64,000 bases of DNA, from the NCBI GenBank assembly GCA_013141435.1, contig JABFQZ010000014.1:49792-113791 (forward strand), read 5' to 3'. The first letter of the stretch is position 1. The number at the start of each line of letters is the position of its first letter. The notes under the pieces were generated by a model. That model did not search any database. It worked only from the letters and a program-made list of their open reading frames with translations, and was not told the DNA's origin. Below are positions 11,043-48,435 of the stretch, in pieces. The DNA comes from Ferruginibacter sp. GTDB lineage: Bacteria; Bacteroidota; Bacteroidia; Chitinophagales; Chitinophagaceae. The translations under genes were made by a program, and so were the position numbers.

Positions 11043-11421
11043 AATTAGAAGCGTTTACTTCAGATAATTGGAATGTAAAGATAGTCTTATAAAAAAAATA
11101 TTTTTACATCTTTATATTTTAAACGCAAAATTTAGGAAAATATTATACTAATACTCTATTATTTATTAACAAATGAATTATAAATGTGGATATAGGTATA
11201 AGTTAGAGTAGATTTAGTAATAAATTCAAAGAATTTTAAAGAATTGAGAAAATTATTTGAAAGGGGAAAATTTAGAAAAAGATAGAAAAGAACCTGAAAA
11301 AATAAAGACAAATTTTACCTCAAAAAGCACAAAGAAAATTCGTACAAAGAATGCAAAGAAATGTTCATCATTGTTTCTTTTGTGGTGCCCAAACTTAGTT
11401 TTTTGAGATGCGCATAAGAAC

Positions 11422-12520: not shown

Positions 12521-12522
12521 TT

Positions 12523-19342: not shown

Positions 19343-19348
19343 TTTCTT

Positions 19349-21690: not shown

Positions 21691-21692
21691 AG

Positions 21693-26899: not shown

Positions 26900-26900
26900 T

Positions 26901-27644: not shown

Positions 27645-27658
27645 ATTTTTTATTTTAT

Positions 27659-28648: not shown

Positions 28649-28658
28649 CAAACGCTAA

Positions 28659-29654: not shown

Positions 29655-29683
29655 AGATATAATTTTAAGCTTTTATGCTAATT

Positions 29684-30649: not shown

Positions 30650-30692
30650 AATGAGTTAAAGCATAATTTTAAAAGTACTCAGAAATGAATCT

Positions 30693-31559: not shown

Positions 31560-31560
31560 T

Positions 31561-32124
31561 TTATCTTTTTTTTATAAATTTTGCTGGCACACCTCCTACA
31601 ATAGTGTATGATTCTACTGATTTATTAACTACACTTCCTGCTGCTACTATTGCTCCTTTTCCTATAGTAACACCATCTAATATTTGACATCCAGCACCAA
31701 TCCATACATCATCTTCAATACGGATTCCTTTATAATTTTCTCCTTGCAATTTTATTGGGATATCTTTTCTATCAAATTTATGATTGGCCGGTATTATTAC
31801 ACAATGTGCTGCAATTAAAACATTATCTCCAATTACTACTCCTTTTCCATGTCCATATATTATTGTATATGGATTTATACTACAATTATTTCCAATTTTT
31901 ATACTACCGCCATTTGTAATCAATAAACTACCTATACGAAATTCATTACCGTTACCAATACTAATTGTTCCTGAAAGCGGATTTTCAAAAATTACAAAAT
32001 CATCAATTCTATTATTAGATCCAATAAAAATATTCTTAAGTTTATATTTAGATTGCAAATTTTTATAACCCAATCCTGGGTTAAACATTATCAGTTTAAT
32101 TTTCTTTATTATTTTATTTAACAT
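31561..32124 (-). CDS. Acyltransferase, hexapeptide-repeat (LbH)
   Basis: IGNNCSINP, IGDNVLIA, PANH, IEDDVWIGAG, VGGVPAK. Confidence 0.9.
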   Translation of the reverse strand: MLNKIIKKIKLIMFNPGLGYKNLQSKYKLKNIFIGSNNRIDDFVIFENPLSGTISIGNGNEFRIGSLLITNGGSIKIGNNCSINPYTIIYGHGKGVVIGDNVLIAAHCVIIPANHKFDRKDIPIKLQGENYKGIRIEDDVWIGAGCQILDGVTIGKGAIVAAGSVVNKSVESYTIVGGVPAKFIKKR

Positions 32125-33364
32125 TCCAATCACACTTTAAATAAAAACTTCCAATATTGCTATTACTATATGTTGATAGTTCAGATTCCAAATCCTCTAT
32201 CTCAAAAGAACACACTTCTGTTAAATATTCAAATGGTTGTTGGTTTTGTAAAAAAATTGCTGCATCAACAAAATACAAACCTGTTAATAGAATTTTACTT
32301 GGAATAATTACTTCTATTTTACTTTCTAACTTATTGAGGTTGTATTCAGGTATAACAAAAGTATCAGTAAAAATTTTTTGTTGCCATCTATCTTTAATAG
32401 CAATTCCAATAGTTGTTCCTTTAATTTTAGACAAATGTTTTATCGAAAAAAAAATTTTTATTGGTTTAGCAAAATTAAAAGTTGAATTTTCTGATTCATT
32501 GCTAATTTTAATACTATAAATACTTTCGTTCAAATTATTGTTTGTATTTTTAAAATCTGCATTGCTATTTAAGCCTGTATTTAGATATTGTTTTACAACT
32601 GATTCAATGTTATCATTACAATTTACATTGCCATTAATCAACAATAAACCTCTATCGCAAAGAGTTGATATTGCTCCCATATTATGACTCACAAACAAAA
32701 CCGTTCTCCCTCCTTTCTCACTCACATCCTTCATCTTCCCCAATGCTTTTTTTTGAAACTCTGCATCGCCTACTGCAAGCACTTCATCTACAATCAAAAT
32801 TTCTGGTTCTAAATGCGCAGCCACCCCAAAGGCAAGGCGCACATACATACCGCTGCTGTAGCGTTTTACAGGTGTATCTATATATCGTTCTACGCCAGCA
32901 AAATCTACAATTTCATCAAACTTGCTTTTTATTTCTTGCTTGGTCATGCCCAAAATAGCACCATTTAAAAAAATATTTTCTCTACCGCTAAGCTCGGGGT
33001 GAAAGCCAGTACCTACTTCTAACAAACTTGCTATTCTTCCTTTTAGCTTTATACTTCCAGTGGTAGGTGTTGTTGTTTTACTAAGTATTTTTAAGAGGGT
33101 ACTTTTACCTGCTCCGTTTCTTCCTATTATACCCAGCACTTCGCCTTGTTTTACTTCAAAATTTATATTTTTTAATGCCCATACATAATCGCTATCTGCT
33201 TTTGTAGCCCTGTCATTTATTTCGCCGATTTTTAAATATGGGTTTTCTTTGCCACGTACTTTGTGCCACCATTTGTTTACATCATGTGCAAGTGCACCTG
33301 TACCTACATCTCCTAGGCGGTATTGTTTAGATATATTTTCTACTTTTATTACAGTATCACTCAT
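32114..33364 (-). CDS. wzt: ABC transporter ATP-binding protein Wzt with C-terminal Wzt_C domain
   Basis: GRNGAGKST, TPVKRYSSGM, LIVDEVLAVGD, plus a ~150 aa C-terminal beta-rich extension. Confidence 0.92.
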   Translation of the reverse strand: MSDTVIKVENISKQYRLGDVGTGALAHDVNKWWHKVRGKENPYLKIGEINDRATKADSDYVWALKNINFEVKQGEVLGIIGRNGAGKSTLLKILSKTTTPTTGSIKLKGRIASLLEVGTGFHPELSGRENIFLNGAILGMTKQEIKSKFDEIVDFAGVERYIDTPVKRYSSGMYVRLAFGVAAHLEPEILIVDEVLAVGDAEFQKKALGKMKDVSEKGGRTVLFVSHNMGAISTLCDRGLLLINGNVNCNDNIESVVKQYLNTGLNSNADFKNTNNNLNESIYSIKISNESENSTFNFAKPIKIFFSIKHLSKIKGTTIGIAIKDRWQQKIFTDTFVIPEYNLNKLESKIEVIIPSKILLTGLYFVDAAIFLQNQQPFEYLTEVCSFEIEDLESELSTYSNSNIGSFYLKCDWNVK

Positions 33365-33365
33365 G

Positions 33366-33992
33366 TTACTTTTTTGATATTGATTTGGCTGGTATACCTA
33401 CTACAGTTTCACCATCAGCTACATCTTTTACTACTACTGCACCTGCTCCCACTATTACATTATTACCTAGTACAACCTTTGGTAAAATGGTTGCGTTTGT
33501 TCCAATATTACAAAAAGATCCTATTATACAATTACCCGAAATGCTCACCCCTGGCGAAAGCTCTGTAAATTCCCCAATTGTGGTATCATGCCCAACAGTA
33601 GAATTCAAATTTATTAAGCAACCCCTTTTTATTGAAACATCATTTGTAATAATTGTACCAGTCATTATGTTACAACCTTCTTCAATAACATTACCATAGT
33701 TTCCAATTACAGCAAATGGGCTTATAGTGCTTATAAATTTTCCGCCAAGCTGCAAGAATTTTTCATACAAAATGGCTCTTGTTACTGGATTTCCAATTCC
33801 GATTGTAAACCTATTATCATTTTTAAAAAGCGTAGCTACATCTTTTTCACTTTTTAAGATATGAAAATTATACAATTTATCTCCGATGTCATTTGTAACA
33901 TCATCATAAAAAAAAATATTATCCAACTTGTTTTGCTGATGAAAAATTTCTAGTACCTCTTTAGCAAAACCCTTTGCACCGATTATCAACAT
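33366..33992 (-). CDS. Sugar N/O-acetyltransferase (NeuD/PglB/VioB-like)
   Basis: MLIIGAKGFA, IGIGNP, VGHD, LbH repeats, VVGIPA. Confidence 0.88.
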   Translation of the reverse strand: MLIIGAKGFAKEVLEIFHQQNKLDNIFFYDDVTNDIGDKLYNFHILKSEKDVATLFKNDNRFTIGIGNPVTRAILYEKFLQLGGKFISTISPFAVIGNYGNVIEEGCNIMTGTIITNDVSIKRGCLINLNSTVGHDTTIGEFTELSPGVSISGNCIIGSFCNIGTNATILPKVVLGNNVIVGAGAVVVKDVADGETVVGIPAKSISKK

Positions 33993-33996
33993 TTTT

Positions 33997-35070
33997 TTAT
34001 TTTTTTATAATTGATAAAATACATGTAATGATTGTTTGTATATGTTCATCTTCCAACCCATAATAGAATGGAAGGCAAAACACCCGCCTACTAATATCTT
34101 CAGATACGACACAAGGCTGCTTTTCTATAAATGGCAATTCATTTAATGATGGATAAAAATACCTGCGCCCTGATATTTGTTGTTCTTTTAATTTTTCTAC
34201 TACTTGCAACAATACTTCTTCCGACTTAAATACAACAGGATAATAAGCATAGTTATAACTAAGTGTATTTTCCATTTTTGGCCTTTGTAAAATAGTAGCA
34301 AGCGATGCATCGTATAACAACGAAATACGTTTTCTATCGGCAATTATTGCTGCAACATTTGGCAATACACAAAGCCCCATAGCTGCATGAAATTCAGAGT
34401 TTTTCCCATTTATGCCTATACTATAAAAATCATCAAATACATGTCCAAATTGCCTATACAACATTAATTTATTTGCAAGCTCTTTATCATTTGCAATGAT
34501 ACAACCACCTTCTCCTGTATGAAATAATTTTGTAGCATGAAAACTACAAGTAATTATATCGCCATATTGCAACAATGATTTGCCTTTGTATGTACTTCCA
34601 AAAGCATGTGCAGCATCGTAAATAACTTTTAAATTATACTTTTTTGCAATAGCTTCAATTGTTTCAATATCACAATTTATACCAAACACATGAGTGGCTA
34701 GTATAGCTTCGGTTTCACTTGTAATAGCTGCTTCTATTTTTGAAGCATCTATACAAAATGTATTGGGATCTATATCAACAAACACAGGTTTACAACCCTC
34801 CCAGATAATAACATTTGTAGTAGCCACATAACTAAAAGGAGTTGTAATTACCTCTTTGGTAATACCCAATACTTTTAATGCCATTTGCAAAACGATGGTA
34901 CCATTGTTTGTAAATAAAAAGTTTTCTACTCCTAGATATTCTTTTAACTTGCCTTCAAGTTCTAGCACCAGTTCACCATTGTTTGTAAGCCAAGCTTTAT
35001 CCCAAGCACGCTTTAAAGTAACGGTGTATTCATCAAAATTAGGAAGGTATGTTTTAGTTACGTTTATCAT
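33997..35070 (-). CDS. DegT/DnrJ/EryC1/StrS aminotransferase (VioA-like)
   Basis: TNNG, ITTPFSYVAT, IYDAAH, SFHATK (PLP Lys), GINGKNSEFHA, RRYFYP. Confidence 0.88.
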   Translation of the reverse strand: MINVTKTYLPNFDEYTVTLKRAWDKAWLTNNGELVLELEGKLKEYLGVENFLFTNNGTIVLQMALKVLGITKEVITTPFSYVATTNVIIWEGCKPVFVDIDPNTFCIDASKIEAAITSETEAILATHVFGINCDIETIEAIAKKYNLKVIYDAAHAFGSTYKGKSLLQYGDIITCSFHATKLFHTGEGGCIIANDKELANKLMLYRQFGHVFDDFYSIGINGKNSEFHAAMGLCVLPNVAAIIADRKRISLLYDASLATILQRPKMENTLSYNYAYYPVVFKSEEVLLQVVEKLKEQQISGRRYFYPSLNELPFIEKQPCVVSEDISRRVFCLPFYYGLEDEHIQTIITCILSIIKK

Positions 35071-35651
35071 TTTGTTCTTACTACCATTTCATTTTTTAAA
35101 AAATATTTTTCTCCACTTTCTTTACATACCCATTCTCCATTATTGTCAAATTCTATTGTATTACCATATTCACTCACCCAACCTATTTGTTTTGCAGGGT
35201 TGCCAACTACGAGTGCGTAAGGTTTTACTGGTTTTGTTATTACAGCTCCTGCACCTATCATTGCATATTGTCCAATTTCATTGCCGCATACAATTGTTGC
35301 GTTTGCACCTATGCTTGCACCTTTTCTTACAACGGTTTCTTTGTATTCATGTTTTCTTACAATTGCACTACGAGGGTTTATTACATTGGTAAATACCATT
35401 GATGGTCCTAGAAAAACATCATCTTCACACACTACACCCGTATATAAAGAAACGTTATTTTGTATTTTTACATTTCTACCTAATACAACTTTTGGCGATA
35501 CAACCACATTTTGGCCAATATTACAATCCTCTCCTATTACACATCCTTTCATTATGTGCGAATAGTGCCAAATTTTTGTTCCTTTTCCTATTTCACATCC
35601 ATCATCTATATAGGATGATTCGTGTACAAAATATTCAATTTTATTTTTCAT
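35067..35651 (-). CDS. N-acetyltransferase, WbpD/WlbB-like
   Basis: YFVHESSYID, KIWHYSHI, KIQNNVS, FTNV.NPRS, VGNPA, WVSEYG; ATG at 35651. Confidence 0.88.
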   Translation of the reverse strand: MKNKIEYFVHESSYIDDGCEIGKGTKIWHYSHIMKGCVIGEDCNIGQNVVVSPKVVLGRNVKIQNNVSLYTGVVCEDDVFLGPSMVFTNVINPRSAIVRKHEYKETVVRKGASIGANATIVCGNEIGQYAMIGAGAVITKPVKPYALVVGNPAKQIGWVSEYGNTIEFDNNGEWVCKESGEKYFLKNEMVVRTK

Positions 35652-35723
35652 TTTAATCAAAAAAATTAAATTGTTTTTTCTAGCCAAAATACACTTCGGG
35701 CTAATATAGAAGGCTTTCAACTT

Positions 35724-36584
35724 CTACACTGTATCCATAAAACTACGCTCTACTTTATTAAAAATAACTGCACCAAAAAATAATGTAGTCAATATAAAGA
35801 TAGCACTGTATAATAAATGTAATGGCTCAAAACTCCCTTTGCCCAACAAGGCATACCTAAATGCTTCTACAATTGGAGTAAGCGGATTGTATTGTAATAA
35901 CCAAGCATAACTTTTACCTTTAAGAATAGAAAGTGGATAAGCAATTGGTGTTAAATACATTAATAATTGTACAGCAAATCCTATAAGTACTGTAAAGTCT
36001 CGGTATTTGGTGGTGAGTGATGAAATAATAATTCCAAGGCCTAAACCCATGCCAGCCATCATTACAACTAATAATGGAATAAGCAACCATGTGGCTCCAA
36101 AATAAAAATACTGCTCTTTAAAACCTATCCAAACCATTACCAAAAAAAGTACAAAAAATTGTATGACAAACTTAATAATATTGCTAAGTACTGTGCTTAA
36201 TGGTATTACTAATCTTGGAAAATAAACTTTACCAAAAATGCCCGCATTGGCTACAAATGTATTTGAAGTACCTGTAAGGCATGCCGAAAAATAATTCCAA
36301 ATAGTAATGCCACTCATAAAAAAAAGTGTTGCATTTATACCATCGGTTTGTATGCCTGCAATACTTTTAAATACAAATAAAAAAACTATAGTAGTAAATA
36401 CTGGTTGTATTAAATGCCATAATGGGCCAAGTATTGTTTGTTTATATTGTGCTGCAAAATCTCTTTTTACAAATAGTATAAGCAAATCTCTATATCTCCA
36501 CACTTCTTTTAGTCGTAGGTCAAATAATTTTGATCTAGGTTCAATTATTTCATCCCAATGTTCGTCTGTAATTATTTTTTCCAT
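35724..36584 (-). CDS. wzm: ABC transporter permease Wzm
   Basis: YKQTILGPLW, KVYFPRL, KYRDF, NPLTPIVEAFR; ATG at 36584 (GTG at 36605 possible). Confidence 0.92.
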   Translation of the reverse strand: MEKIITDEHWDEIIEPRSKLFDLRLKEVWRYRDLLILFVKRDFAAQYKQTILGPLWHLIQPVFTTIVFLFVFKSIAGIQTDGINATLFFMSGITIWNYFSACLTGTSNTFVANAGIFGKVYFPRLVIPLSTVLSNIIKFVIQFFVLFLVMVWIGFKEQYFYFGATWLLIPLLVVMMAGMGLGLGIIISSLTTKYRDFTVLIGFAVQLLMYLTPIAYPLSILKGKSYAWLLQYNPLTPIVEAFRYALLGKGSFEPLHLLYSAIFILTTLFFGAVIFNKVERSFMDTV

Positions 36585-36664
36585 TTTATTTTCCACTAAG
36601 TTCACGAAGTGAATTTATGAATTATTCGATACTATAAAAACCATATTAATTTAAGGCCAAATAA

Positions 36665-37774
36665 CTAATTTAAGAATGTATCCAAGTTTTGTTTGTAATT
36701 TTCGTACCCAAAATGTTTCATCAATAATGCTTGATTGGGTTTGTAATCGTTGTAGCTTTCAATCATTTTTTGCAAAGCTGTTGTTATACCATTTGTATCT
36801 TCAGGATTTATAATAATACCAAGTTTTCCTTGCAACAATGCATCTACTGAGCCATCTACATTACCTGCTATTACTGGCACTCCGTAATACATTGCTTCTA
36901 CAAATACTATTCCAAATCCTTCTTTGGAACTTGGCATAATGTAAATATCTGCAAGCGAAAAATGCCATGCCAATTCTTCTTCTTTTATAAAGCCAGTTAT
37001 TATTACATTGCTTTGCAAATTATATTTTGCAATTAATGATTCTACATATTTTTTTTCTTGTACTTCATAACTACCGGCAAGTATGTATTTAATATTTTTA
37101 TTTTTGTTTACAATTAACACTAATGATTTTAATACTTGTGTATAGCCTTTGTATCTATCTTTTTCGGAAAGTCGTGTAATTGTCAATAAAATTATATCAT
37201 TGCTTTTAAGGTTATACCTTTTTATTAATTCAATATTTCTAATTTTTTTATCTGGTTTTTCTAAAAATGGATCTATACAATTGTTAAAAACAAAACATTT
37301 TTCTTTTGGTATATTATGAACTGCTTGTATTCTTTCATTTGTAAAACTACTTACCGATAATATTTTGTTGCAAGCAGTCAACATCATCATTTTTTGTTTG
37401 CTTAATGTGCTCCAAATTTCGATACCATGTGCTAACAATATTACCGTTGTATTTGGGGCTATTTTTTTTATGAGCCAACCAACAAGTAATAGATTTATAT
37501 GGCTTAATATTACAATATTACTACGAGCCCCAGCTTTTAGTGCATCTTTTACAAAAATTGTTTTGTTTGCATTATAGCCACAAAAAATTTCGGTCGGAAA
37601 ATATTTATTATCTACTGCACAAACTTTGGGGTCGTGCATGCTCATAATTTTTATTGTTTTATTATTTTGTAGCCCATATTCAAACAAGGCTTTACCAGCA
37701 ACTTTACATACTTTTTCGATACCGCCGGTAGCAGAAAATACTTTGAGTGTTAAAAATAAAATTTGGTTTGAAAT
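36665..37774 (-). CDS. Glycosyltransferase family 4 with non-canonical start
   Basis: TITRL, MPSSKEGFGIVFVEA. The frame stays open upstream of the TTG at 37687 and encodes ILFLTLKVFSATGGIEK, with only ATT/ATA as possible starts; 37774 is a guessed start. Confidence 0.82.
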   Translation of the reverse strand: MSNQILFLTLKVFSATGGIEKVCKVAGKALFEYGLQNNKTIKIMSMHDPKVCAVDNKYFPTEIFCGYNANKTIFVKDALKAGARSNIVILSHINLLLVGWLIKKIAPNTTVILLAHGIEIWSTLSKQKMMMLTACNKILSVSSFTNERIQAVHNIPKEKCFVFNNCIDPFLEKPDKKIRNIELIKRYNLKSNDIILLTITRLSEKDRYKGYTQVLKSLVLIVNKNKNIKYILAGSYEVQEKKYVESLIAKYNLQSNVIITGFIKEEELAWHFSLADIYIMPSSKEGFGIVFVEAMYYGVPVIAGNVDGSVDALLQGKLGIIINPEDTNGITTALQKMIESYNDYKPNQALLMKHFGYENYKQNLDTFLN

Positions 37775-37795
37775 AAAGCGAAATTTTATAAAATA

Positions 37796-39592
37796 TTAAA
37801 TCAAGTTTTTATTTTTTAATACTATTAGCGACATAATTCTGCTCCAGTGCAAAGTACCCGAAAGAAAATCTTGACAAGCTTTTTTTGTATAATCATTATT
37901 ATTATTATGCGATAATTCATTAACAAATTCACTATTTTTCATCCACTCTGCAAAAGGAAAACTAAAGCCCATTTTGGGTCTGTTCCAAACTTCTTTTGGC
38001 AAAATATTTTCAAAAGATTTTATTAATAATTGTTTGGGCATTTTACCAGCATACTTAATATTTTCGTTGATGGAAAAAACAGATTCTATTACTTCATTAT
38101 CCAAAAAAGGCACTCTTATTTCTAACCCATGAGCCATACTCATTATATCTGCATCTTTTAATAATTGATCTTGCATATACAAATTATATTCTAGCCAGCT
38201 TGCAGTATTTTTTGCTTCACAATTTTCTAAAATTGGAGATGTTGGCATGTTTTGTATAATATTCCAAACATCTTTTTCATACGCCCCTAATTGTTGAGCA
38301 ATTTGTTTAGTATTAAAATGCCCTCTCAAAAACAAATACAAGCCTCGTATGCCTCCAAGTTTTAAATATGATAATCTAGCTAATTTTTTATTGTTGATAT
38401 TGCCTAGTCCAAGTAAAACTGCTTTTGGTAGTTTTGCTAAAATTTTTGCTTTTTTTATTCTATCAAAAGATGGGTAACCTCCAAACAATTCATCGGCTCC
38501 AACTCCCGACAATACAGCTTTTAAACCTTCGTTGGCAGCAAACTTGCTAATAAACCAAGTGTTTATTCCATCGCAAGTGGGCATATCCATTGCAACCATA
38601 AAATCGGCAAAGTTGGCATGAAATTCATTTTCAGTTAATAGTATTGAATGATGATTACTTCCAATTTTTTGAGCAACAATATCTTGATATTTTTTTTCGG
38701 AATAATTTTCTTCATTAAAATAAATGGATAAGGTATGTACATTTTTTTTTGAATTGCTGCTTGCCAAATTAGCAATTATTGCAGAATCAATACCGCCACT
38801 TAAAAAAACACCCACAGGTGCATCGGCAATCATTTGCCTTTGTACAGCATTATTTAAAGACTTATGTATTATTTGTTTTGCATCAATTTCAGAATTTATT
38901 TTATTACCGAAACTAAAATAATTAAATGAGAATAAATTACCCTTATTGGTATTGGCGTTGTATTTATAATAGCAGCCTTTGGGTAAACACTGTACATTTT
39001 TTAAAGTTGTAACTGGCTCTGGTATATAACCGTAAGCCAATTGAAAAACACTTGCATTTTCATTTTTAGTACTCAAATACTCTAAGGGAGCAAAAGCCCT
39101 TATTTCTGAAGCAAAAGCAAGCGCTGTAGTGTGTGTAGAATAATATAGTGGTTTTATACCTGCCGCATCTCTTACCAAATAAATTATTTTTTCTTCATTA
39201 TCCCAAAGTGCAAATGCAAACATACCATTGAATTTTGCAAAACTTTTTGTATTCCATTTTGCAAAAGCTGCAAGTACAACTTCGGTATCGGTGTTGGTTT
39301 TAAATTGCAAACCTTCCGCTATTAATTCGGCTTTTAGGTCTAAGTAATTATACAATTCTCCATTGAAAGTAATGGTATATCGATCGGTAAATTGCATTGG
39401 CTGATGCCCAGCAGTTGTTAAATCTAACAAAGAAAGCCTTCTATTACCAAGTACTAAGTTATCGTTTTTAAATGTAGCAATTCCACCATCGTCTGGTCCG
39501 CCATGTTGAAGCAGTTGGCACATTTTTCCTACAATTGTTTCTAATTGTAATGTATCCAATTTTTTATTAAGTACTCCAGCTATTCTACACAT
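37796..39592 (-). CDS. asnB: Asparagine synthase (glutamine-hydrolysing)-like amidotransferase, polysaccharide-associated
   Basis: N-terminal Cys (MCRIAG), GPD, FNGELYN, DTEV, LSGGIDS, GADELFGGY, RVPFLD, KMGF. Confidence 0.92.
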   Translation of the reverse strand: MCRIAGVLNKKLDTLQLETIVGKMCQLLQHGGPDDGGIATFKNDNLVLGNRRLSLLDLTTAGHQPMQFTDRYTITFNGELYNYLDLKAELIAEGLQFKTNTDTEVVLAAFAKWNTKSFAKFNGMFAFALWDNEEKIIYLVRDAAGIKPLYYSTHTTALAFASEIRAFAPLEYLSTKNENASVFQLAYGYIPEPVTTLKNVQCLPKGCYYKYNANTNKGNLFSFNYFSFGNKINSEIDAKQIIHKSLNNAVQRQMIADAPVGVFLSGGIDSAIIANLASSNSKKNVHTLSIYFNEENYSEKKYQDIVAQKIGSNHHSILLTENEFHANFADFMVAMDMPTCDGINTWFISKFAANEGLKAVLSGVGADELFGGYPSFDRIKKAKILAKLPKAVLLGLGNINNKKLARLSYLKLGGIRGLYLFLRGHFNTKQIAQQLGAYEKDVWNIIQNMPTSPILENCEAKNTASWLEYNLYMQDQLLKDADIMSMAHGLEIRVPFLDNEVIESVFSINENIKYAGKMPKQLLIKSFENILPKEVWNRPKMGFSFPFAEWMKNSEFVNELSHNNNNDYTKKACQDFLSGTLHWSRIMSLIVLKNKNLI

Positions 39593-39608
39593 TTATTTAT
39601 ACTAAGAT

Positions 39609-40559
39609 CTAGTTTTTTTTTGCAATATACTTTGTGTAATTTTTACTGAAATCTTCATAAGTATATTTTAAGCCAGTAGTTAAATCTATAGAGTATTTCC
39701 AACCCAGATTTTCTAATTTATGTACGTCTAATAATTTTTGCATTGTACCATCGGGTTTTGTATCATCAAAAATTAAATCTCCTAAATAGCCTACAATTTC
39801 TTTTATTTTTAACGCCATTTCTTTTATAGAAAAATCGATACCACAGCCTATATTTACAATAGAAGAATCATTATAATTTTGCATTAAATAAATACATGCA
39901 GCAGCAGCATCATCTACATGCAAAAATTCTCTTTTAGGCTTGCCTGTACCCCAAATGGTTACTGTTGGTTCATTATTTATTTTAGCCTCATGAAATTTTC
40001 TTATAAGTGCTGGTAACACATGTGCATTGTCTAAATCATAATTATCGTTTGGTCCATATAAGTTTGTAGGCATAACACTTATAAAGTTGCAGCCATATTG
40101 TGTATTGTATGCTTTGCACATTTCTATTCCTGCAATTTTAGCCATTGCGTAGGGTGAGTTTGTAGGTTCTAATGGTCCAGTCATTAAATACTCTTCTTTT
40201 ATTGGCTGTGCTGCAAGCTTAGGATAAATGCAACTACTGCCTAAAAACAATAATTTTTCTACACCGTTTTTATAGGCTTCGTTTATTACATTATTTTGTA
40301 CTGCAAGGTTATCGTAAATAAACTCTGCTCCATAAGTTTTGTTTGCCATAATGCCACCAACCTTTGCAGCTGCTAAAAACACAAATTGTGGTTTTTCTTG
40401 CTGAAAAAATTTCTTTACGGCAAACTGATCTCTTAAATCTAAATCGGAAGAATTAGCTGTAATGATATACCTGTAACCAAGTTTTGTAAGCAACCTTACA
40501 ATAGCACTACCTACTAAACCCTTATGACCAGCCACATATATTTTATCGTTGAAATTCAT
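39609..40559 (-). CDS. fcl: GDP-L-fucose synthase
   Basis: AGHKGLVGSA, LAAAKVGGI, LGSSCIYPK, YAMAK, PTNLYGP, REFLHVDD. Confidence 0.95.
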   Translation of the reverse strand: MNFNDKIYVAGHKGLVGSAIVRLLTKLGYRYIITANSSDLDLRDQFAVKKFFQQEKPQFVFLAAAKVGGIMANKTYGAEFIYDNLAVQNNVINEAYKNGVEKLLFLGSSCIYPKLAAQPIKEEYLMTGPLEPTNSPYAMAKIAGIEMCKAYNTQYGCNFISVMPTNLYGPNDNYDLDNAHVLPALIRKFHEAKINNEPTVTIWGTGKPKREFLHVDDAAAACIYLMQNYNDSSIVNIGCGIDFSIKEMALKIKEIVGYLGDLIFDDTKPDGTMQKLLDVHKLENLGWKYSIDLTTGLKYTYEDFSKNYTKYIAKKN

Positions 40560-40656
40560 TTATTATTAATTAGTATTTAGATGTTATTATTGAGTATTGA
40601 GATTAGTACTGCAAATATTTGAATTTTTTGAAAATAAAACGGATTAGGTAAAAAAT

Positions 40657-40694
40657 ATTATTCATTATTCATTATTCATTATTCATTATTCATT
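40657..40694. repeat. Heptanucleotide tandem repeat (ATTATTC)x5.4
   Basis: Five perfect ATTATTC units plus ATT, between upxY and fcl. Confidence 0.95.
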
Positions 40695-40718
40695 TAATAT
40701 TTACTCATTTATAAATTA

Positions 40719-41219
40719 TTAAATAATGCATTTCTCCAAATTTGATCTTTCTATAATGGCTGTAATGGCTATACCCATTGATTCTAATTTTACTTTTGCT
40801 TTATTGCCAAATATTTCTACAATTATTCCTTTATAGTTCATCAAAACGCCTTTCTTTACCTCTACATTTTCATTAATACCTGCATCTAAATTATTTACTT
40901 CTACTTCGTCAAATTCATTTAAAAATTTTCTGATATTATCTATTTCCGAATTTTTTACTACTGCAGGTTTACCTAACCAATACACATAGTTTAAAATACC
41001 ATCTACCATTTTTAAATCCCATTTATTTTTTGTTTCGGGGCATACAAAAACGTAGCCTTTAAATAATGGCACTTCTATTATCTTTTTTCTATCGCTCCAT
41101 TGTTTTTCTATTTTATTTAATGGACAATAATGTTCTATTTCTTTTTTCTCAAGGGCAGCTGCAATTTTTTTTTCCCATCTTGGTTTTGTATAAACTACAT
41201 ACCATTTTTTTTCCAACAT
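40719..41219 (-). CDS. upxY: UpxY family (NusG paralog) transcription antiterminator
   Basis: WYVVYTKPRWEKK, WSDRKKII.VPLF.GYVFV, C-terminal KOW. Confidence 0.93.
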   Translation of the reverse strand: MLEKKWYVVYTKPRWEKKIAAALEKKEIEHYCPLNKIEKQWSDRKKIIEVPLFKGYVFVCPETKNKWDLKMVDGILNYVYWLGKPAVVKNSEIDNIRKFLNEFDEVEVNNLDAGINENVEVKKGVLMNYKGIIVEIFGNKAKVKLESMGIAITAIIERSNLEKCII

Positions 41220-41259
41220 GTATTTTTTTTATATTTTACAATTGTTACCAACTGGGCAA

Positions 41260-41268
41260 AGCTTCGCT
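41260..41268 (-). promoter_or_regulatory. Candidate ops-like UpxY loading site (GCGAAGC DNA mini-hairpin)
   Basis: Non-template strand AGCGAAGCT, about 40 nt upstream of the upxY ATG. Confidence 0.5.
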
Positions 41269-41352
41269 ATTCCTCAGTCACATGGATTTTAATCCATTTT
41301 ACTTTAGGAGATTTACAATTAATATTTTTTTGCAAAAAATTGCAACTTCAAA

Positions 41353-43794
41353 TTATTTAAAACTTTGTTTTCGTTTAAATAATTTTTTCAAAAAACCTAC
41401 AAACCCAAAAATATTTTTGTACCCAGGCATGCCACCATCGGCAGTATAATAACTTCCTGCTTCGCTACCATAACCATAGCCGTATCCATAACCATAACCG
41501 TAGCCATAGCCATAGCCATTTCCATAACCGCCAAATCCAAAATTAAAGAACGATGCTCCTCTTGGTTTTACACCATTAAACACTACACACATACCGTTAA
41601 ACTTTTTTTCTTTTTTCAAGCTATCGGCAAGTTTTAAAAATACCGATGGTGTTACATCATGCCTAACTACATAAATAGTAATACCTGCATAAATATTTAA
41701 TAATTGAGAATCGGTAACTGGCCCAATAGGTGCAGAATCTATAATAATATAATCGAATCTGTTTTTTAATTCTGTTATCATTTCTCCAAACTCGGTTTTG
41801 CCTATAAGTTCTGTAGGGTTTGGTGGTATTGGACCTGCGGTTACCAAAAATAAATTATTGTAAGCAGTAGGTTTTATAATTTCATCTAAAGATGATTTTC
41901 CAATTAAATAAGAAGATATACCTGGATCTCTTTTTATACCAAGCTCTTTACTAAGTTTTGGTTTACGAAGATCCATTTCTAATAATGCAACTTTTTTTCC
42001 CGTAAGGGTTATGCTTAATGCAAGGTTTGTAGCTACAAAACTTTTTCCTTCGCCAGATATACTTGAGGTAACTAAAATAGTTTTATTTTTTTCGTTAAGC
42101 CCCATAAAACCTAAGTTGGTTCTTAAAGAACGGAATTGCTCTGCAATTACTGTTCTTTTCCCTTCGGTAATTGCAATATTATTTTTATCTGGTGTTTGTA
42201 TTATTTCTCCTATAACTGGTATTTTGGTTTTATTTTCTATTTCATTTCTAAATAAAACTTTGCTGCTCAAAGGCTCGTTTAATTGTACAAATAAAAGAAA
42301 ACCTAATAAGCCTAAAAGCAAACCCATTAAATAATAGTTTTTAGCAATTGGGCGTATTGGCCCATACGAATATCCATTTTCTAAAACTCTTAAATCGGCC
42401 GAAGTAGATGCAGATGATATGGCTGTTTCTTCTCTTTTATTTAAGAGAAAAGTATATATATTTGTTTTAATGGCTCTTTGTCTGCTAACTTCTAAAATTG
42501 CTCTTTCTTTGCCAGGTAATTGTGAAAGTAAGCTGCTGTTTTTTGCAATATTAGCTGTTATACTATTTTTTTCTAACTGATAATTATTTCTTACATTATT
42601 TATGTTTTCTTTAATATCATTTTTTATACGAACAACTTTTTCGTTAGCAAGTAGTACTGTTTCGCTTTTATCTCCATTTGTAGCTTTAACCTTATCTAAA
42701 TCAAATTCGGCAGTGTATAATTGATTTAAAAGATTACCCAACAATGGGTCGCTCACCATTTGTGTAGCAGGCACTGTACCTGGGTGCCTGCCCTTACTAT
42801 TTACATAACTTTGCACACCCGATAGTACATCTAATTGCAATTCTATCTCTGTTTTTTTCTGATCTAAATCTTTTACTACACTAGCATATTGTTCTCCTTG
42901 TACCGACACATCAGTTATCCCTTCTCTTGCCCTAATGGCTGCTTCACTTCTTTCTACACTATCTAAATCTGCTGTTACTTTTGCTAGCCTATCATCTACA
43001 AATTTTAGTGTTCGTAATGCTATTTGATTTTTATCTTCTATACCAACAATGTTATATATCTCAAATAATTTATTCAAAATTTTAATGCCTTTTTCGGGCA
43101 CTGGTGTTTCTATACTTACATTAATAACTGTAGATGAAAACGATAAAGGTGAAGCATTTATAGAGCCTGCAATAGCTCCAGATACGGATCCTAAATCATT
43201 AAAAATTACAAAATAATTTTTACCAATTACATTTTTACTGTAGGATTCGTTTATTACTATCTTATAATTAGTTCCATTAATATTTACAATATCTAAAAAG
43301 TTATATACTGTTTTATTTAATTTAATGGTATTGTTTTTCCAATTAATATCAAGTGTAAATTTCCCTCCGCCATTTATAGCACTATCCTTATTTACTGCTA
43401 CAAAATATAAAGGAGCATTGTTACCATACAATTCTTCGGTTTGTACTTTTCCTTCATTATACAAAGTTGTATAAAGGTCTAATTGTTTTACTACATCTTG
43501 CATTAAAGAGGTAGATTTTAAAACCAATATTTCGTTTTCTACAATTTTTTTTTCGCCAAAAATATTTAATGCCTCTAGAACTTTACTATCACTTCCTCCT
43601 TTTTGGGGATCTTTTAATAATACTTTTGCCGCAGCTACGTATATTTTTGTTTGCGATCGTAAATAAATAAAAGCAACAGATAATGATATGGCTAATAGAA
43701 TGGCAAGCAATGGCCAAAAAGGCAAATATCGATGTACAATTTGTACCAAAATATTTGCTTGGGGTTTATCTTCAAAAAATTGATCTTCGCTCAT
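41353..43794 (-). CDS. wzc: Polysaccharide biosynthesis tyrosine autokinase Wzc
   Basis: Two TM segments around a coiled-coil periplasmic region, EQFRSLRTN, Walker A SGEGKS, DLRKP, IIDSAP, C-terminal (GY)8 Tyr cluster. Confidence 0.95.
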   Translation of the reverse strand: MSEDQFFEDKPQANILVQIVHRYLPFWPLLAILLAISLSVAFIYLRSQTKIYVAAAKVLLKDPQKGGSDSKVLEALNIFGEKKIVENEILVLKSTSLMQDVVKQLDLYTTLYNEGKVQTEELYGNNAPLYFVAVNKDSAINGGGKFTLDINWKNNTIKLNKTVYNFLDIVNINGTNYKIVINESYSKNVIGKNYFVIFNDLGSVSGAIAGSINASPLSFSSTVINVSIETPVPEKGIKILNKLFEIYNIVGIEDKNQIALRTLKFVDDRLAKVTADLDSVERSEAAIRAREGITDVSVQGEQYASVVKDLDQKKTEIELQLDVLSGVQSYVNSKGRHPGTVPATQMVSDPLLGNLLNQLYTAEFDLDKVKATNGDKSETVLLANEKVVRIKNDIKENINNVRNNYQLEKNSITANIAKNSSLLSQLPGKERAILEVSRQRAIKTNIYTFLLNKREETAISSASTSADLRVLENGYSYGPIRPIAKNYYLMGLLLGLLGFLLFVQLNEPLSSKVLFRNEIENKTKIPVIGEIIQTPDKNNIAITEGKRTVIAEQFRSLRTNLGFMGLNEKNKTILVTSSISGEGKSFVATNLALSITLTGKKVALLEMDLRKPKLSKELGIKRDPGISSYLIGKSSLDEIIKPTAYNNLFLVTAGPIPPNPTELIGKTEFGEMITELKNRFDYIIIDSAPIGPVTDSQLLNIYAGITIYVVRHDVTPSVFLKLADSLKKEKKFNGMCVVFNGVKPRGASFFNFGFGGYGNGYGYGYGYGYGYGYGYGSEAGSYYTADGGMPGYKNIFGFVGFLKKLFKRKQSFK

Positions 43795-43807
43795 TCTTAA
43801 CTTAATT

Positions 43808-44611
43808 TTACTTTATTATTCTGCTCAAAATTATTATAACAAGCGATACAACCGATGCTACTAAAGATAAGTTGGTTTGCAATTTTTTCTTATTTTCTTC
43901 TTTTACATATTTTACATTATCTGCAGCTACAATAATAATATCGTTTGGTTTTGCATAATACCAGCTCGATGTAAAAATGGAATGATCTTCTAAATTGATA
44001 TGTTTTACTTTTTTCTGATTTCCTTCTTCTCTAATTACTGTAATGTTATTTCTTATTGCATTTGGTGTTACATCTCCACTCAAAACCAAAGCATCTATTA
44101 TAGAAATTTGTTCTTCGGGCATATTTAATACCTGAGGTTTGCTTACCTCTCCTAGTATTGTAATTTTATGATTTAGGTAATTTACAGTAACTATAGGCTC
44201 TTTGGTATATGGCAACAACCCATTCTCAATTTTTTTTGATAACTCCTTTCTTGTAAGTCCTTCGGCTACGATGGCTCCGAGCCTATGCAATAATATTGTA
44301 CCATCTTGTTGTACTAAATAGCCTGCTGTAGTTGCTAATGATGAAGTGCTAGCTGGGTTATTAAAAAATGCATCTTCAGATGGGCTCAAACTGCTTACAG
44401 ATATTGAAATTTTATCGCCTTTTATTATTTTAGATTCGTAATCGTTAGATACAAAATTTTGTAAAGTTGTATCTTTTTGCAGAGTTTTGAAATAAGATCC
44501 TTGGCTTGTAACCTTGCATGAGGATAAAGATAAAATTGCAATATAAATCAGTAATACATTTATATACAAAATACACTTACCACTCACAGAATGTGGGTAT
44601 TTATTTTTCAT
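43808..44611 (-). CDS. wza: Polysaccharide export lipoprotein Wza
   Basis: Lipobox LSSC, GDKISISV, ILGEV.KP, DALVLSGD, PNDIIIV. Confidence 0.92.
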   Translation of the reverse strand: MKNKYPHSVSGKCILYINVLLIYIAILSLSSCKVTSQGSYFKTLQKDTTLQNFVSNDYESKIIKGDKISISVSSLSPSEDAFFNNPASTSSLATTAGYLVQQDGTILLHRLGAIVAEGLTRKELSKKIENGLLPYTKEPIVTVNYLNHKITILGEVSKPQVLNMPEEQISIIDALVLSGDVTPNAIRNNITVIREEGNQKKVKHINLEDHSIFTSSWYYAKPNDIIIVAADNVKYVKEENKKKLQTNLSLVASVVSLVIIILSRIIK

Positions 44612-44749
44612 TTAGATTAATATTCAATTAGAAAAGCCTTTCTATTTTATAATGTAACAAAAATCGTTAAAAAAACTGATTAAAAGATTAAGTAAAATAA
44701 ATATTTTTATTGTATATGTTAAATAAAATATATTGCTCATCTATAATTC

Positions 44750-44797
44750 AATTTAAGCATAAAGCCGTTTATTTCTAAACGGCTTTATGCTTAAATT
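44750..44797. terminator. Perfect 22-bp hairpin after the T9SS gene
   Basis: AATTTAAGCATAAAGCCGTTTA-tttc-TAAACGGCTTTATGCTTAAATT, 12 nt downstream of the stop at 44810. Confidence 0.75.
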
Positions 44798-44809
44798 ATT
44801 GTACTTAAT

Positions 44810-47467
44810 TTAGTATTTTACTAATCTGGTTGTTTTTCTTTCTCCATCATCATTACTTGCAGTTATGGTATATGTACCAGCATTTATATTTTGAAAAAGT
44901 AGGTCTATAGAGTTATAACCTGCAATAACATTTATGGTTTGTGTAGCTACAATTTTACCCACTATATCTGCCACTGTAATAATATATTTTCCTGCTTTTG
45001 CACTAGTTAAGGCTAATACAGCATTTCCTTTTGAAGGATTAGGGGTAACATTTATAAGTTCAAAACCTTTTTCGTTATTTAAAAGTACTACAATTGTACT
45101 GTATCTTAATGAGCCGTTAGTTTCAATTACTTTTAAACGGTAATAATTTTTGCCTGCAAACGGATTAGCATCAGTGTAGCTAAAATCTTGCAAACAACGA
45201 GTTGAAGTTGCTGTTTCATCGTATACAGTTTTAAAATTAATTCCGTCAGTACTACGTTCCAATACCAATAATAATATTGAAGAACTTATAGCATTTACTT
45301 TCCAATTCAAATAATTTCCAAAACTACTTTTACTTCCTCTAAAAAATTCGATACCTACTGGCAGAACGGTGGTTGGCCCCACTCCGCTTGCATAAGTACC
45401 TCCACTAAAACTTGTAAGGCCATTAAACTGTGCATAAAGTACTCCATTTATTGTAGCAGCCCCAGTATTTGCATCTGTAAGTGGTATTGCATTTAAAACT
45501 AAATCGGAATTTACATGAGCAGCATCACCAACAAAAGAACCAGATGTAGTTTTAAACCAACTTGATGGTTCTAAGATACTACCAGTATTAGTAGCTTGAA
45601 AGGCAATAGCTGCGGCATCTGTAGCTGTTTTTTCGGCGGCATTGTAAAAGAAACGAACATTTACTGGAGTTGTAGGTTGTACGCCAGCCACATCTATATT
45701 CCAATATCTTTTCATAGTAAATGTACCTTTTGCTGTAGCACCACTACCAGTTGTAGTTGCGTAATCTGTGGCATCGTATGTAAGTGTAGCTGTAGCTGCT
45801 GCTTTAGATGCAGTGTTTGAACCCCACTCTACAGCTAATACATTTTTATTAGATGCATCGTTGTAATAAGTCCAACCTAGGTCTTCACAATTATTTGTAA
45901 GGGTATATGTATTTACAACAGTTTCTAATGCTACATTATTTGTTGGTAATCCTTCTTCTATGGTTATATCATCTAAGCCAAATGCATTACCATATTTACT
46001 TACACCTTCAAAACCAATTTGTATAGTTTGCCCTGCATAAGCACTTAAATCTACTATATTTTTACTCCAAATTGGTGCCGCATTTGCGGTTAATGTGGCA
46101 TCATGCCTTTGTAAACCAGCACCTATATTTAAAATATTTTTCCTTACCCATGTAATGCCTTTATCTACAGATACAGATACGTACATACTATCCAATTCTG
46201 GGAGTGTTGTTGTATTATCATGGCTCATCCAAAAACTTACTTGGTAAGGGCAACCAGTAGCTGGTATGGCAAAACAATCGCTAAAATACTTACTACTAAA
46301 ACCACTAGAGCTTGCGCCAGAGTAGGAATCGAACAGCATAAATTTGGTGCCACTATGTGCATTTAAAGCAGCTGTTTGATCTGTGTTTGTATATGCAGTA
46401 CTTCTTATACCCCATAACTGCCGAGTACCTGAAATTGTACTTACCCATTTAAAACTATTTAAACCTGTGGTTTCTACATCTTCTAAACTTGGAAAAGTAG
46501 AAATGGTAGGTGTAGTAATTACTGAAGTTGTACCATTATTATCAGATGTATTTGTATCACCTGCTAAACTAATAGATACTGAGAAATTACTTGTACCTGC
46601 ATTATTTAAATTGATACCTGTAAAAGTTACAGTACCTGTAGCCCCAGGCGCTATAGCTGTAGTGTTGCTAGCTGTATAAGTACCAGTATTTGCTGTAGTT
46701 ACAGTAAGGGTTAAAGTAGCATCGCCAATATTTATGGTAGATGTACCCCTATTGGTAATAGTAGTAGTAATACTTTGGGTAGTGGCATGGCAAGAAAATG
46801 TAGGAAAATTGCTAAACCCTACATACGCAGCATCGTTTGGTATTTGATGTGCAAAATAAACCATTGGCCTAAAGCCACTTCCAACTAAATTTGTAGTGCC
46901 TGAAACTGGCGCACTAGTACCACTAAATCTTCTGGATGTAAGATGAGTAGTTGTTGCCAATGCATCGTTAGCGTTTCCTATAGATGCATTCCATAAAATA
47001 CCAGTGCCAGACGCTGCAGTAGTTCTTTCTAATAATATCTGCACATTATCTGAGCCTACTGTACGTACAAATGGAGTAGTTAAGTTTACATAATTCCAAC
47101 CAACTGCATTGGCAACTAGTGTACCACTATATACCAATGTATAACCTGTAGTAGAATATATTCCTGAAGCCATATCAGTAGTTGATGCTGGTACTTCTTT
47201 TAAATAAATATTGTACCCAGCAAAAGAAGTAACAGCGGCTACGGTTGCCAAATTAAATCCTATTCTGTTTATTGCAGTCCCAGCAGTCAAAAAATTTGTT
47301 GACCCTACCTCCGATGATAAATATATAGCTTCGTTGGCATTAAAACTAGAAAGACCAGTAACAATATTGCCACTAGTACCTGGCCATACTGTAATGGAAG
47401 ATGATTGTGCAATTGCAAAAGAATTTAGTATAAATACTAATGCAATAAAAAGTAGATTTTTTTTCAT
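44810..47467 (-). CDS. T9SS type A sorting domain-containing surface protein
   Basis: Sec signal ending AIA-Q, CARDB/Ig-like segment, adhesin-like FGLDDITI segment, LPV..F..G Ig module, C-terminal PNPSKG...DIVGK...AGTY...LVK sorting domain. Confidence 0.88.
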   Translation of the reverse strand: MKKNLLFIALVFILNSFAIAQSSSITVWPGTSGNIVTGLSSFNANEAIYLSSEVGSTNFLTAGTAINRIGFNLATVAAVTSFAGYNIYLKEVPASTTDMASGIYSTTGYTLVYSGTLVANAVGWNYVNLTTPFVRTVGSDNVQILLERTTAASGTGILWNASIGNANDALATTTHLTSRRFSGTSAPVSGTTNLVGSGFRPMVYFAHQIPNDAAYVGFSNFPTFSCHATTQSITTTITNRGTSTINIGDATLTLTVTTANTGTYTASNTTAIAPGATGTVTFTGINLNNAGTSNFSVSISLAGDTNTSDNNGTTSVITTPTISTFPSLEDVETTGLNSFKWVSTISGTRQLWGIRSTAYTNTDQTAALNAHSGTKFMLFDSYSGASSSGFSSKYFSDCFAIPATGCPYQVSFWMSHDNTTTLPELDSMYVSVSVDKGITWVRKNILNIGAGLQRHDATLTANAAPIWSKNIVDLSAYAGQTIQIGFEGVSKYGNAFGLDDITIEEGLPTNNVALETVVNTYTLTNNCEDLGWTYYNDASNKNVLAVEWGSNTASKAAATATLTYDATDYATTTGSGATAKGTFTMKRYWNIDVAGVQPTTPVNVRFFYNAAEKTATDAAAIAFQATNTGSILEPSSWFKTTSGSFVGDAAHVNSDLVLNAIPLTDANTGAATINGVLYAQFNGLTSFSGGTYASGVGPTTVLPVGIEFFRGSKSSFGNYLNWKVNAISSSILLLVLERSTDGINFKTVYDETATSTRCLQDFSYTDANPFAGKNYYRLKVIETNGSLRYSTIVVLLNNEKGFELINVTPNPSKGNAVLALTSAKAGKYIITVADIVGKIVATQTINVIAGYNSIDLLFQNINAGTYTITASNDDGERKTTRLVKY

Positions 47468-47495
47468 AATTTATATATAAAGGATTATTAATAAC

Positions 47496-47503
47496 CAAAT
47501 ATA
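47496..47503 (-). promoter_or_regulatory. -7 element for the T9SS cargo gene
   Basis: Minus strand TATATTTG, 28 nt upstream of the ATG at 47467. Confidence 0.45.
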
Positions 47504-47784
47504 ATTAAAATTTTATAAATAACATTGATTAGCTTTTTTCAAAGTATGGTTTTACTTTAGAAGTATTTTAAAACTTTACAAGGAAAGTTATCACAGAAAA
47601 GCCTTTAAATTAAAATAATATCAAAACTTTAACCACATAGATTCACATATATTTTCTATTGTTTTTCTATGTAACTATCTGTTATATATCATACAACTTT
47701 TAAAATTTATTCTACTAAATTATGGACACTGAATAGTTTCTATGATGTAAGCTTTTACTAATTGTGTAAGAAAGAAAGAAATAT

Positions 47785-47997
47785 TTATTGCAATTTTAAA
47801 ATTGTATTTTTACTAGTATTAAAATCATAAGCTTTTTTTGCGGCTATAACTACAGATGCTGCTATAAGTAAAACTACACCATTGTCTATGGGGCAAGGAT
47901 CTGCTGGGTCGGTACAAGGATCATCTGGGTCTTGCGCATGCAAATTTAAAGGAAAACAAATTGCAATTAAAAATAAAAAAGCCAATAATTGTTTCAT
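47785..47997 (-). CDS. Small PID-CTERM protein-sorting domain peptide
   Basis: Signal peptide (1-21), QDPDDPCTDPADPC, then PIDNG, a hydrophobic helix and KK. Confidence 0.78.
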   Translation of the reverse strand: MKQLLAFLFLIAICFPLNLHAQDPDDPCTDPADPCPIDNGVVLLIAASVVIAAKKAYDFNTSKNTILKLQ

Positions 47998-48021: not shown

Positions 48022-48029
48022 CAAAAATA
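48022..48029 (-). promoter_or_regulatory. -7 element for the PID-CTERM gene
   Basis: Minus strand TATTTTTG, 24 nt upstream of the ATG; TTG about 18 nt further upstream. Confidence 0.5.
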
Positions 48030-48400: not shown

Positions 48401-48435
48401 AAAAATAGCCATTGAAAATTTCAATGGCTATTTTT
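48401..48435. terminator. Rho-independent terminator of the aconitase gene
   Basis: AAAAATAGCCATTGAAA-A-TTTCAATGGCTATTTTT inverted repeat with T-tails on both strands, 18 nt past the stop. Confidence 0.88.

Follow-up and report, generated by a model that had tools for sequence, protein, structure and literature searches.

The window, i.e. the whole stretch of 64,000 nucleotides analysed here from a Ferruginibacter contig, contains a very short gene (hereafter the mini gene) and a small exosortase gene, which are placed at opposite ends of a polysaccharide locus in which every gene from 47997 down to 9532 is carried by the minus strand (Table 1). The translation of the mini gene, MKQLLAFLFLIAICFPLNLHAQDPDDPCTDPADPCPIDNGVVLLIAASVVIAAKKAYDFNTSKNTILKLQ (70 aa), can be divided into a signal peptide with a predicted signal peptidase I site at A21|Q22, a short core and a C-terminal sorting signal. 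This layout of signal peptide, QDPDDPCTDPADPC and PID, as well as the core composition (5 Asp, 4 Pro, 2 Cys), had been proposed in the initial annotation and was recovered from the ORF translation; the two cysteines, Cys28 and Cys35, are spaced as C-x6-C. In the sorting signal, the PID motif is followed by the helix GVVLLIAASVVIAA, by KK and by the conserved AYDF, the tail extending for about 13-15 residues past KK. A lipoprotein reading was considered and rejected, the only candidate (Cys14, within the signal peptide) having no lipobox and not being conserved in the alignment.

Table 1. Features of the window discussed in the text, with the observation on which each assignment is based
Feature	Positions	Strand	Basis
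Mini gene, PID-CTERM type, 70 codons + stop	47785..47997	-	ORF; NCBIfam PID_CTERM match; homologs
Predicted signal peptide MKQLLAFLFLIAICFPLNLHA, residues 1-21 (MKQ…NLHA)	47935..47997	-	n-h-c layout by inspection
Core QDPDDPCTDPADPC, residues 22-35, two DPxDPC units	47893..47934	-	ORF translation
Predicted sorting signal PIDNGVVLLIAASVVIAAKKAYDFNTSKNTILKLQ, residues 36-70	47788..47892	-	PID_CTERM match; lineage-tuned tail HMM
Terminator-like hairpin, 16-pair stem then T run	48401..48435	-	Located after the upstream aconitase gene
Co-oriented polysaccharide locus, ~38.5 kb, mini gene to CpsB-type phosphatase	9532..47997	-	Pfam and NCBIfam annotation
T9SS cargo gene, 885 aa, type A C-terminal domain	44810..47467	-	Por_Secre_tail, 27.5 bits; directly downstream of mini gene
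wza-like polysaccharide export protein	43808..44611	-	Poly_export and SLBB domains
wzc-like chain-length determinant / tyrosine kinase	41353..43794	-	Wzz, GNVR and P-loop domains
Candidate Wzy-like multi-pass polymerase	13632..15044	-	Weak TIGR04370 match; two genes upstream of exosortase
GT4 glycosyltransferase adjoining exosortase	12523..13635	-	Glycos_transf_1; XrtY_assoc_Gly1, 76 bits
XrtY-like exosortase, 187 aa	11957..12520	-	NCBIfam models; single copy in genome

The tandem hexapeptide that had been reported at the DNA level is present in the window, 15 of 18 bases being the same between the six-codon units at 47893-47910 and 47914-47931. Most of this identity follows from the fact that five of the six residues are identical between the two units; the same codon is used for four of these five, which hints at a local duplication and falls short of proving one. 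The general O-glycosylation motif of Bacteroidota, D-(S/T)-(A/I/L/V/M/T), is absent from the mini protein, as had been stated before, and the core lacks it because its sole threonine (T29) comes after a cysteine.

Starting from the mini gene, the locus contains the 885-aa T9SS protein, wza, wzc, a NusG/UpxY-like gene, an epimerase, an AsnB-type amidotransferase and a GT4 glycosyltransferase, then wzm, a DegT aminotransferase, a PglD-like acetyltransferase, wzt and about a dozen glycosyl-, methyl- and acetyltransferases, and it ends with the Wzy-like gene, a GT4 glycosyltransferase, the exosortase, a WcaF-type acetyltransferase, a GT2 glycosyltransferase and the CpsB phosphatase. Pfam searches of some 34 locus ORFs returned only glycosyl-, methyl- or acetyltransferases, sugar-nucleotide enzymes and export proteins, three ORFs remaining without a match. 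The whole locus is colinear with contig C5 (34.1-70.3 kb) of a Ferruginibacter metagenome-assembled genome (MAG), G156, both ends being conserved and the glycosyltransferases in the middle varying. The mini gene heads wza-wzc in 9-10 related genomes checked, with a T9SS cargo gene in between as an optional element: wza lies downstream in six MAGs (five of them also with wzc) and in three further genomes of the same genus, and orthologs of the 885-aa protein are found between the mini gene and wza at loci L046, L047 and L049. As a separate observation, ABC-type export genes (wzm, and a wzt whose product has a Wzt C-terminal domain; together 32114-33364 and 35724-36605) coexist in the locus with the Wzy-like gene (13632-15044) and with Wza/Wzc (41353-44611); glycans could thus be exported by two routes, or by a hybrid one.

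Upstream of the mini gene, the terminator-like hairpin behind the aconitase gene marks the putative 5' border of the transcription unit. A scan for sigma-70 promoters returned matches at chance level, and a TAnnTTTG element found 25 nt before the ATG (48022-48029) was dropped as a promoter, since this AT-rich window contains 133 such elements against 139 expected. Within the 456 bp that separate the aconitase terminator from the mini gene there is also, on the strand opposite to the mini gene (48290-48356, plus strand), a look-alike of the Flavo-1 RNA (RF01705; 41.8 bits for a gathering score of 42, E about 1e-7); no Flavo-1 match was found at seven related loci.

The mini ORF is, judging from its homologs, a real and conserved gene. 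A word-indexed search gave 14 homologs of 67-83 aa, in the alignment of which A21, Q22, D26-P27-C28-T29, P31, D33-P34-C35-P36, D38, A52-A53, K55 and Y57 do not vary and K54 hardly does. For the 17 codons around the core, comparison of four relatives with the window gave 7-9 synonymous and 2-4 non-synonymous changes, and by this count the core is under strong purifying selection. When 1.84 billion representative proteins were searched with a profile, 301 clusters were retrieved at E <= 0.001, and the best 150 of these 301 are all 52-122 aa long. No Rfam match overlaps the mini ORF, which argues against a non-coding RNA, and searches of Pfam and PDB with the mini protein or a 15-member alignment returned no meaningful match and no relative with a solved structure.

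Cores were parsed from the sequences collected by the word-indexed and profile searches, with signal-peptide ends set by rule. The modal core length is 13-15 residues, and the very small product announced by the initial annotation, here about 14-17 residues, is thus the rule in the family. The first core residue is Q in 132 and E in 15 of the 147 relatives parsed. The 141 cores whose composition was computed contain 25.6% Pro, 19.1% Asp, 11.3% Cys, 8.7% Gly and only 0.5% Lys + Arg; exactly two cysteines are present in 107 of them, spaced as C-x6-C in 66 of these 107. The residue immediately N-terminal to P-x-D is Cys in 111 of 141 relatives and V, I, T, A or L in the other 30. The tandem form DPxDPC-T-DPxDPC is rare, being limited to the window, P0002 and L048, and the majority of close relatives read Q-P-[IV]-DPC-TDPADPC. 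Across these alignments the Cys pair and the DP dipeptides are conserved, and the hexapeptide duplication is not. In most close relatives P-I-D occurs at both ends of the core (Q-PID-PC … PC-PID), the first copy being replaced by DPD in the window.

Conservation of the Cys pair and DP repeats among homologs had been proposed as a test of the initial annotation, and it gave a divided answer. Both are kept within the subfamily, as the counts above indicate, and in three of the four other genomes of the same genus the ortholog located before wza-wzc is Cys-free (QLGDPEGDPDAPVDGG, QADPGEDPDAPIDGG and QIGDGDPGGDPDAPIDGG; loci L064, L065 and L066 of genomes G489, G341 and G412). By these sequences, cores with a predicted Cys loop and Cys-free cores are exchanged at one genomic position within the genus. 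A short acidic stretch, rich in Pro and Gly and devoid of basic residues, is constant across the two forms, together with P-x-D and the tail. Given these three Cys-free orthologs and the rarity of the tandem hexapeptide, any disulfide or metal-binding role would be specific to the subfamily at best, and is contradicted as the general function of the peptide.

The affiliation of the C-terminal tail was examined with the PID-CTERM model of NCBIfam (NF046080), which matched the mini protein with 21.7 bits (E 1.3e-4, residues 36-58) and the mini ORF of a six-frame search with 23.1 bits, both scores lying under the cut-off of 26; profile positions 2-24 of 25 are covered by residues 36-55, PIDNGVVLLIAASVVIAAKK. 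As in PID-CTERM proteins, an N-terminal signal peptide is combined with a C-terminal tripartite signal made of P-I-D, a hydrophobic transmembrane helix and a basic (Lys) cluster, and the distribution is similar, being restricted to Bacteroidota and strictly associated with small exosortases (about 180-200 aa). The mini tails differ by PIDNG or PIDSN in place of PIDGG and by an additional conserved KKxYD[FY] tail. By sequence, the mini protein is a divergent PID-CTERM protein lying below the family threshold. NF046080 matches 6 of the 15 closest relatives at E <= 0.01, so that this branch is largely invisible to routine annotation. A tail HMM tuned to the lineage retrieved the mini ORF alone from the genome (E 1.4e-14, the next-best ORF being at 0.59).

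PID-CTERM was curated together with exosortase X (XrtX, NF046081) and an XrtX-associated protein (NF046082), and the partner enzyme of the window is in contrast XrtY-like. An exosortase X system is recognised by an XrtX score of at least 170 bits together with the associated protein; the enzyme of the window scores 55 bits with NF046081, and the associated protein is absent from the genome (best match 16.5 bits, cut-off 75). The top NCBIfam family is exosortase Y (NF046083), with 120 bits for a cut-off of 160, and the general exosortase/archaeosortase signature TIGR04178 is matched above its cut-off (31.4 bits for 23). In an alignment with ten related enzymes, which has an invariant C, N..R and HH, the candidate catalytic residues Cys96, Arg137 and His157/158 all fall in invariant columns. 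As in the exosortase Y system, the small exosortase lies beside a Wzy-like polymerase and a GT4 glycosyltransferase within a polysaccharide locus, and the gene order (Wzy-like, GT4, exosortase) is the same despite models that remain below threshold: the adjacent GT4 scores 76 bits with the XrtY-associated glycosyltransferase model XYAG1 (NF046085), for which the cut-off is 400, and no match to the XrtY-associated Wzy (NF046084, XrtY_assoc_Wzy) was found in the genome. For XrtY itself, no recorded cognate sorting signal was found, and the PID-type mini protein is the sole candidate here: phmmer and HMM searches run without speed filters on all six-frame ORFs of the genome detected one exosortase and one PID-type tail.

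Co-occurrence of mini genes and exosortases was assessed in two genome samples. In a family sample of 151 genomes, searched with the mini-protein profile and for XrtX/Y-like enzymes, the mini gene was found in 32 genomes, the enzyme in 41 and both in 31; the enzyme is thus present in 31 of 32 mini-bearing against 10 of 119 mini-free genomes (Fisher p = 2e-22, kinship being ignored). In a phylum sample of 401 genomes, searched with a broader mini profile and the exosortase signature, the corresponding numbers were 105, 152 and 104, i.e. an exosortase in 104 of 105 mini-bearing against 48 of 296 mini-free genomes (p = 4e-57, kinship again ignored). Shared ancestry inflates these counts, yet their one-sidedness is clear: the mini gene is almost never found without the enzyme. 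About half of the 48 exosortase-positive, mini-free genomes belong to family f24, in which the open frames of the enzymes reach about 275-380 aa; these are of a different exosortase type and presumably have other substrates.

A dedicated sorting system is expected to match one enzyme to one target, with genes located nearby (Haft criteria, 10.1101/2023.06.07.544157). The pairing is 1:1 within the genome of the window, and all six genomes carrying Cys-pair mini genes have an ortholog of the window exosortase (45-64% identity). In ten genomes of the family sample the mini gene lies less than 1 kb from an exosortase gene; nine of these ten have it immediately upstream of the enzyme gene, in the same orientation. 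The two genes of the window are not adjacent, with 35 kb between them; in G156 they are found in the same locus, 33 kb apart, and at six Ferruginibacter loci no exosortase was detected within 6 kb of the mini gene, the enzyme being encoded elsewhere in those genomes.

[quoted passage not shown] Among the ORFs that end just upstream of mini genes (loci L005-L031 and L045-L050), 19 of 20 have a Por_Secre_tail match at E <= 0.01, which exceeds the Pfam cut-off in 14 cases, and triads of cargo, mini gene and exosortase are found at L007, L012 and L022. The window differs in that the upstream neighbour is an aconitase gene and the T9SS cargo gene is located directly downstream instead; no remnant of a lost T9SS cargo gene was found in the upstream spacer. 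Two motif classes preceding the C-terminal domain, NYYR[IV]K and NRF.L, recur in the cargo proteins, and the 885-aa protein of the window is of the NYYRLK type. Taken together, the exosortase partner, the setting in a polysaccharide locus and the T9SS cargo link, none of which appeared in the initial annotation, are the best clue to the function of the mini gene.

On this basis we consider it probable, while well short of certain, that the product of the mini ORF is a substrate without cargo, serving only the one XrtY-like exosortase of the genome, both genes being part of one surface-polysaccharide locus. For the path that follows, we infer cleavage, acceptor and function alike from sequence and from analogy with better-known systems. 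The protein would be exported by Sec and cut by signal peptidase I at A21|Q22, and Gln22 would then be converted to pyroglutamate by the glutaminyl cyclase of the genome (Glu_cyclase_2, 260 bits, C21:50329-51042). The suitability of this Gln for cyclisation had been pointed out before and holds well: the invariant A|Q site agrees with the Q-rule of Bacteroidetes, whereby a Gln following the signal peptidase I site becomes pyroglutamate (PMC5837995, PMC10653852). Cys28 and Cys35 would be oxidised in the periplasm, closing an 8-residue loop. PID, the membrane helix and the KK tail would keep the peptide in the inner membrane, where it would be recognised by the exosortase (Cys96, Arg137, His157/158). 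As sortases and archaeosortase A suggest by analogy, the enzyme would cut at or next to PID, hold the peptide as a thioester and transfer the newly formed C-terminus to an acceptor.

Such a path would yield a peptide of 14-17 residues, carrying a net charge of about -6. Since pyroglutamate and the lack of Lys leave no free amine, such a peptide could act as an acyl donor only, i.e. as a cap or as an anchor piece. Because the mini gene heads wza-wzc and the enzyme gene lies among glycosyltransferase genes, the most likely acceptor would be either a lipid of the envelope or the glycan, containing amino sugars, that the locus produces. The computed neutral monoisotopic mass of pGlu-DPDDPCTDPADPC with one disulfide is 1468.476 Da, and those of the forms extended by P, PI and PID are 1565.529, 1678.613 and 1793.640 Da, respectively.

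In its mode of action, the window system thus appears to belong with the dedicated pairs of exosortase and substrate that NCBIfam catalogues under PID-CTERM/XrtX and XrtY (NF046080-NF046085). Its apparent novelty lies in an XrtY-like enzyme being combined with a PID-type tail in a genome that has no XrtX-associated protein, below the family-level cut-offs of PID-CTERM, XrtX and XrtY, and in the conserved C-x6-C-PID core, which lies outside the 25-position model NF046080 and of which no description was found in the literature searched. In the same literature, no paper using PID-CTERM, XrtX or XrtY as sorting terms was found, nor any experiment on them.

Several known systems offer comparisons. 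PExPT-CTERM/XrtJ (TIGR04200, a 57-position model) resembles the present one in pairing one enzyme with one tiny target made of barely more than its signals; the two are not homologous (14.7 bits for a cut-off of 40, E 0.02) and differ in motif and lineage. The PEP-CTERM/exosortase A (EpsH) system of Proteobacteria (PMC1569441) likewise has its exosortase inside an exopolysaccharide locus and a tripartite signal, and AsnB-type amidotransferase, glycosyltransferase and Wza/Wzc-type export genes are common to both kinds of loci; it differs by its motif (PEP instead of PID) and by its phylum. In PEP-CTERM systems the substrates are usually numerous and carry true passenger domains, whereas one substrate without passenger is found here. 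The partner enzyme is weakly matched by the ArtE and ArtA models. The PGF-CTERM/archaeosortase A system of Haloferax volcanii, which we take to belong to the same enzyme superfamily with its conserved Cys/Arg signature, is the experimentally studied relative. Archaeosortase A couples cleavage to lipid attachment and serves as the model for the transfer step proposed here; its system is archaeal, with large S-layer glycoproteins as substrates, and we know of no bacterial exosortase for which anything comparable has been demonstrated.

Other explanations of the same gene were weighed against this dedicated-substrate reading. The protein could remain uncleaved as a bitopic micro-protein of the inner membrane, with its acidic loop outside and KKAYDF inside, acting as an accessory or regulator of Wza-Wzc or of the exosortase. 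Its predicted cytoplasmic tail is strongly conserved (A52, A53, K55, Y57) and exceeds the usual length of a sorting signal; with KKxYD[FY] plus 10-15 residues it is longer than classical exosortase signals, so that the protein might work intact. The position of the mini gene as first gene of a wza-wzc operon in the 9-10 related genomes would fit, as would a core that can be replaced by Cys-free forms at the same position. We nevertheless hold this micro-protein to be rather unlikely: the near-absolute co-occurrence and frequent adjacency with exosortases are better explained by an enzyme-substrate pair, many mini genes are distant from any wza-wzc, and the succession of motif, helix and basic cluster is that of cleaved sorting signals. 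A role as T9SS cargo adaptor, in which a lipid or glycan would receive the peptide C-terminus from the exosortase and the peptide would in turn serve to join or dock the neighbouring T9SS protein, is suggested by the 19 of 20 upstream ORFs ending in Por_Secre_tail, by the cargo-mini-exosortase triads and by the cargo gene directly downstream in the window. The C-terminus of T9SS cargo is known to be joined to an amine on a linking sugar (PMC7468200); pyroglutamate and a Lys + Arg content of 0.5% would leave the peptide with no amine for such a PorU-type transpeptidation, and in G056, G341 and G412 the mini gene is followed by wza with no adjoining T9SS cargo gene detected, which makes an adaptor decidedly unlikely.

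The description of the product as RiPP-like and membrane-processed can be accepted in part. To speak of a ribosomal peptide that undergoes processing within the membrane is reasonable; the mini gene is not that of a RiPP in the family sense, where the leader is recognised by dedicated modifying enzymes encoded nearby, since the Pfam scan of the locus ORFs gave no maturase-type match and the leader is an ordinary Sec signal. A free peptide, soluble and closed by a disulfide, with a metal-binding or signalling role, would suit the acidic Asp-Pro-rich core with its conserved C-x6-C, and also the purifying selection acting on it. We regard it as very improbable, given that neither a peptide maturase, nor a peptidase-type ABC exporter, nor an immunity gene was seen in the locus, that positional orthologs of the same genus lack Cys, and that neither a Pfam family nor a relative of solved structure corresponds to it. 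The cysteine placed immediately before the motif in 111 of 141 relatives recalls sorting signals handled by CPBP/Rce1-type "myxosortases" instead of exosortases. The mini protein falls outside that signal class (MYXO-, JDVT-, Synerg- and CGP-CTERM); its cysteine is not invariant, 30 of 141 relatives having V, I, T, A or L, no CPBP domain was detected among the locus ORFs scanned, and the statistical partner is the exosortase, so that we give this reading hardly any weight.

The dedicated-substrate reading can be extended in a more speculative and, in our opinion, doubtful way, by supposing that the peptide is a covalent end-piece of the glycan system, joined by the exosortase to an amino sugar or lipid carrier, and that neighbouring T9SS proteins need it for their attachment. 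If glycans were indeed capped or anchored in this manner, exosortase, Wza-Wzc export and T9SS would be linked via one 14-residue peptide. That mini genes regularly follow genes for T9SS surface proteins, and that the one of the window precedes wza-wzc as first gene, suggests that envelope pathways studied separately are connected. Exosortases were reportedly proposed in 2006; to our knowledge, the acceptor of a bacterial exosortase has not been established, and the usual systems comprise dozens of large substrates. With one enzyme, one substrate and a peptide of about 1.5 kDa whose mass is predictable, the adduct mass could directly reveal the acceptor, and such a one-enzyme, one-peptide system could offer a way into what exosortases attach their products to. 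The mini family is widespread in Bacteroidota, being present in a quarter of the sampled genomes, and is largely missed by annotation. Up to 14-16 copies of the mini gene are found in single genomes (G019 and G315), and several of the copies of G019 lie less than 1 kb from contig starts, which suggests repeated cassettes at which assemblies break.
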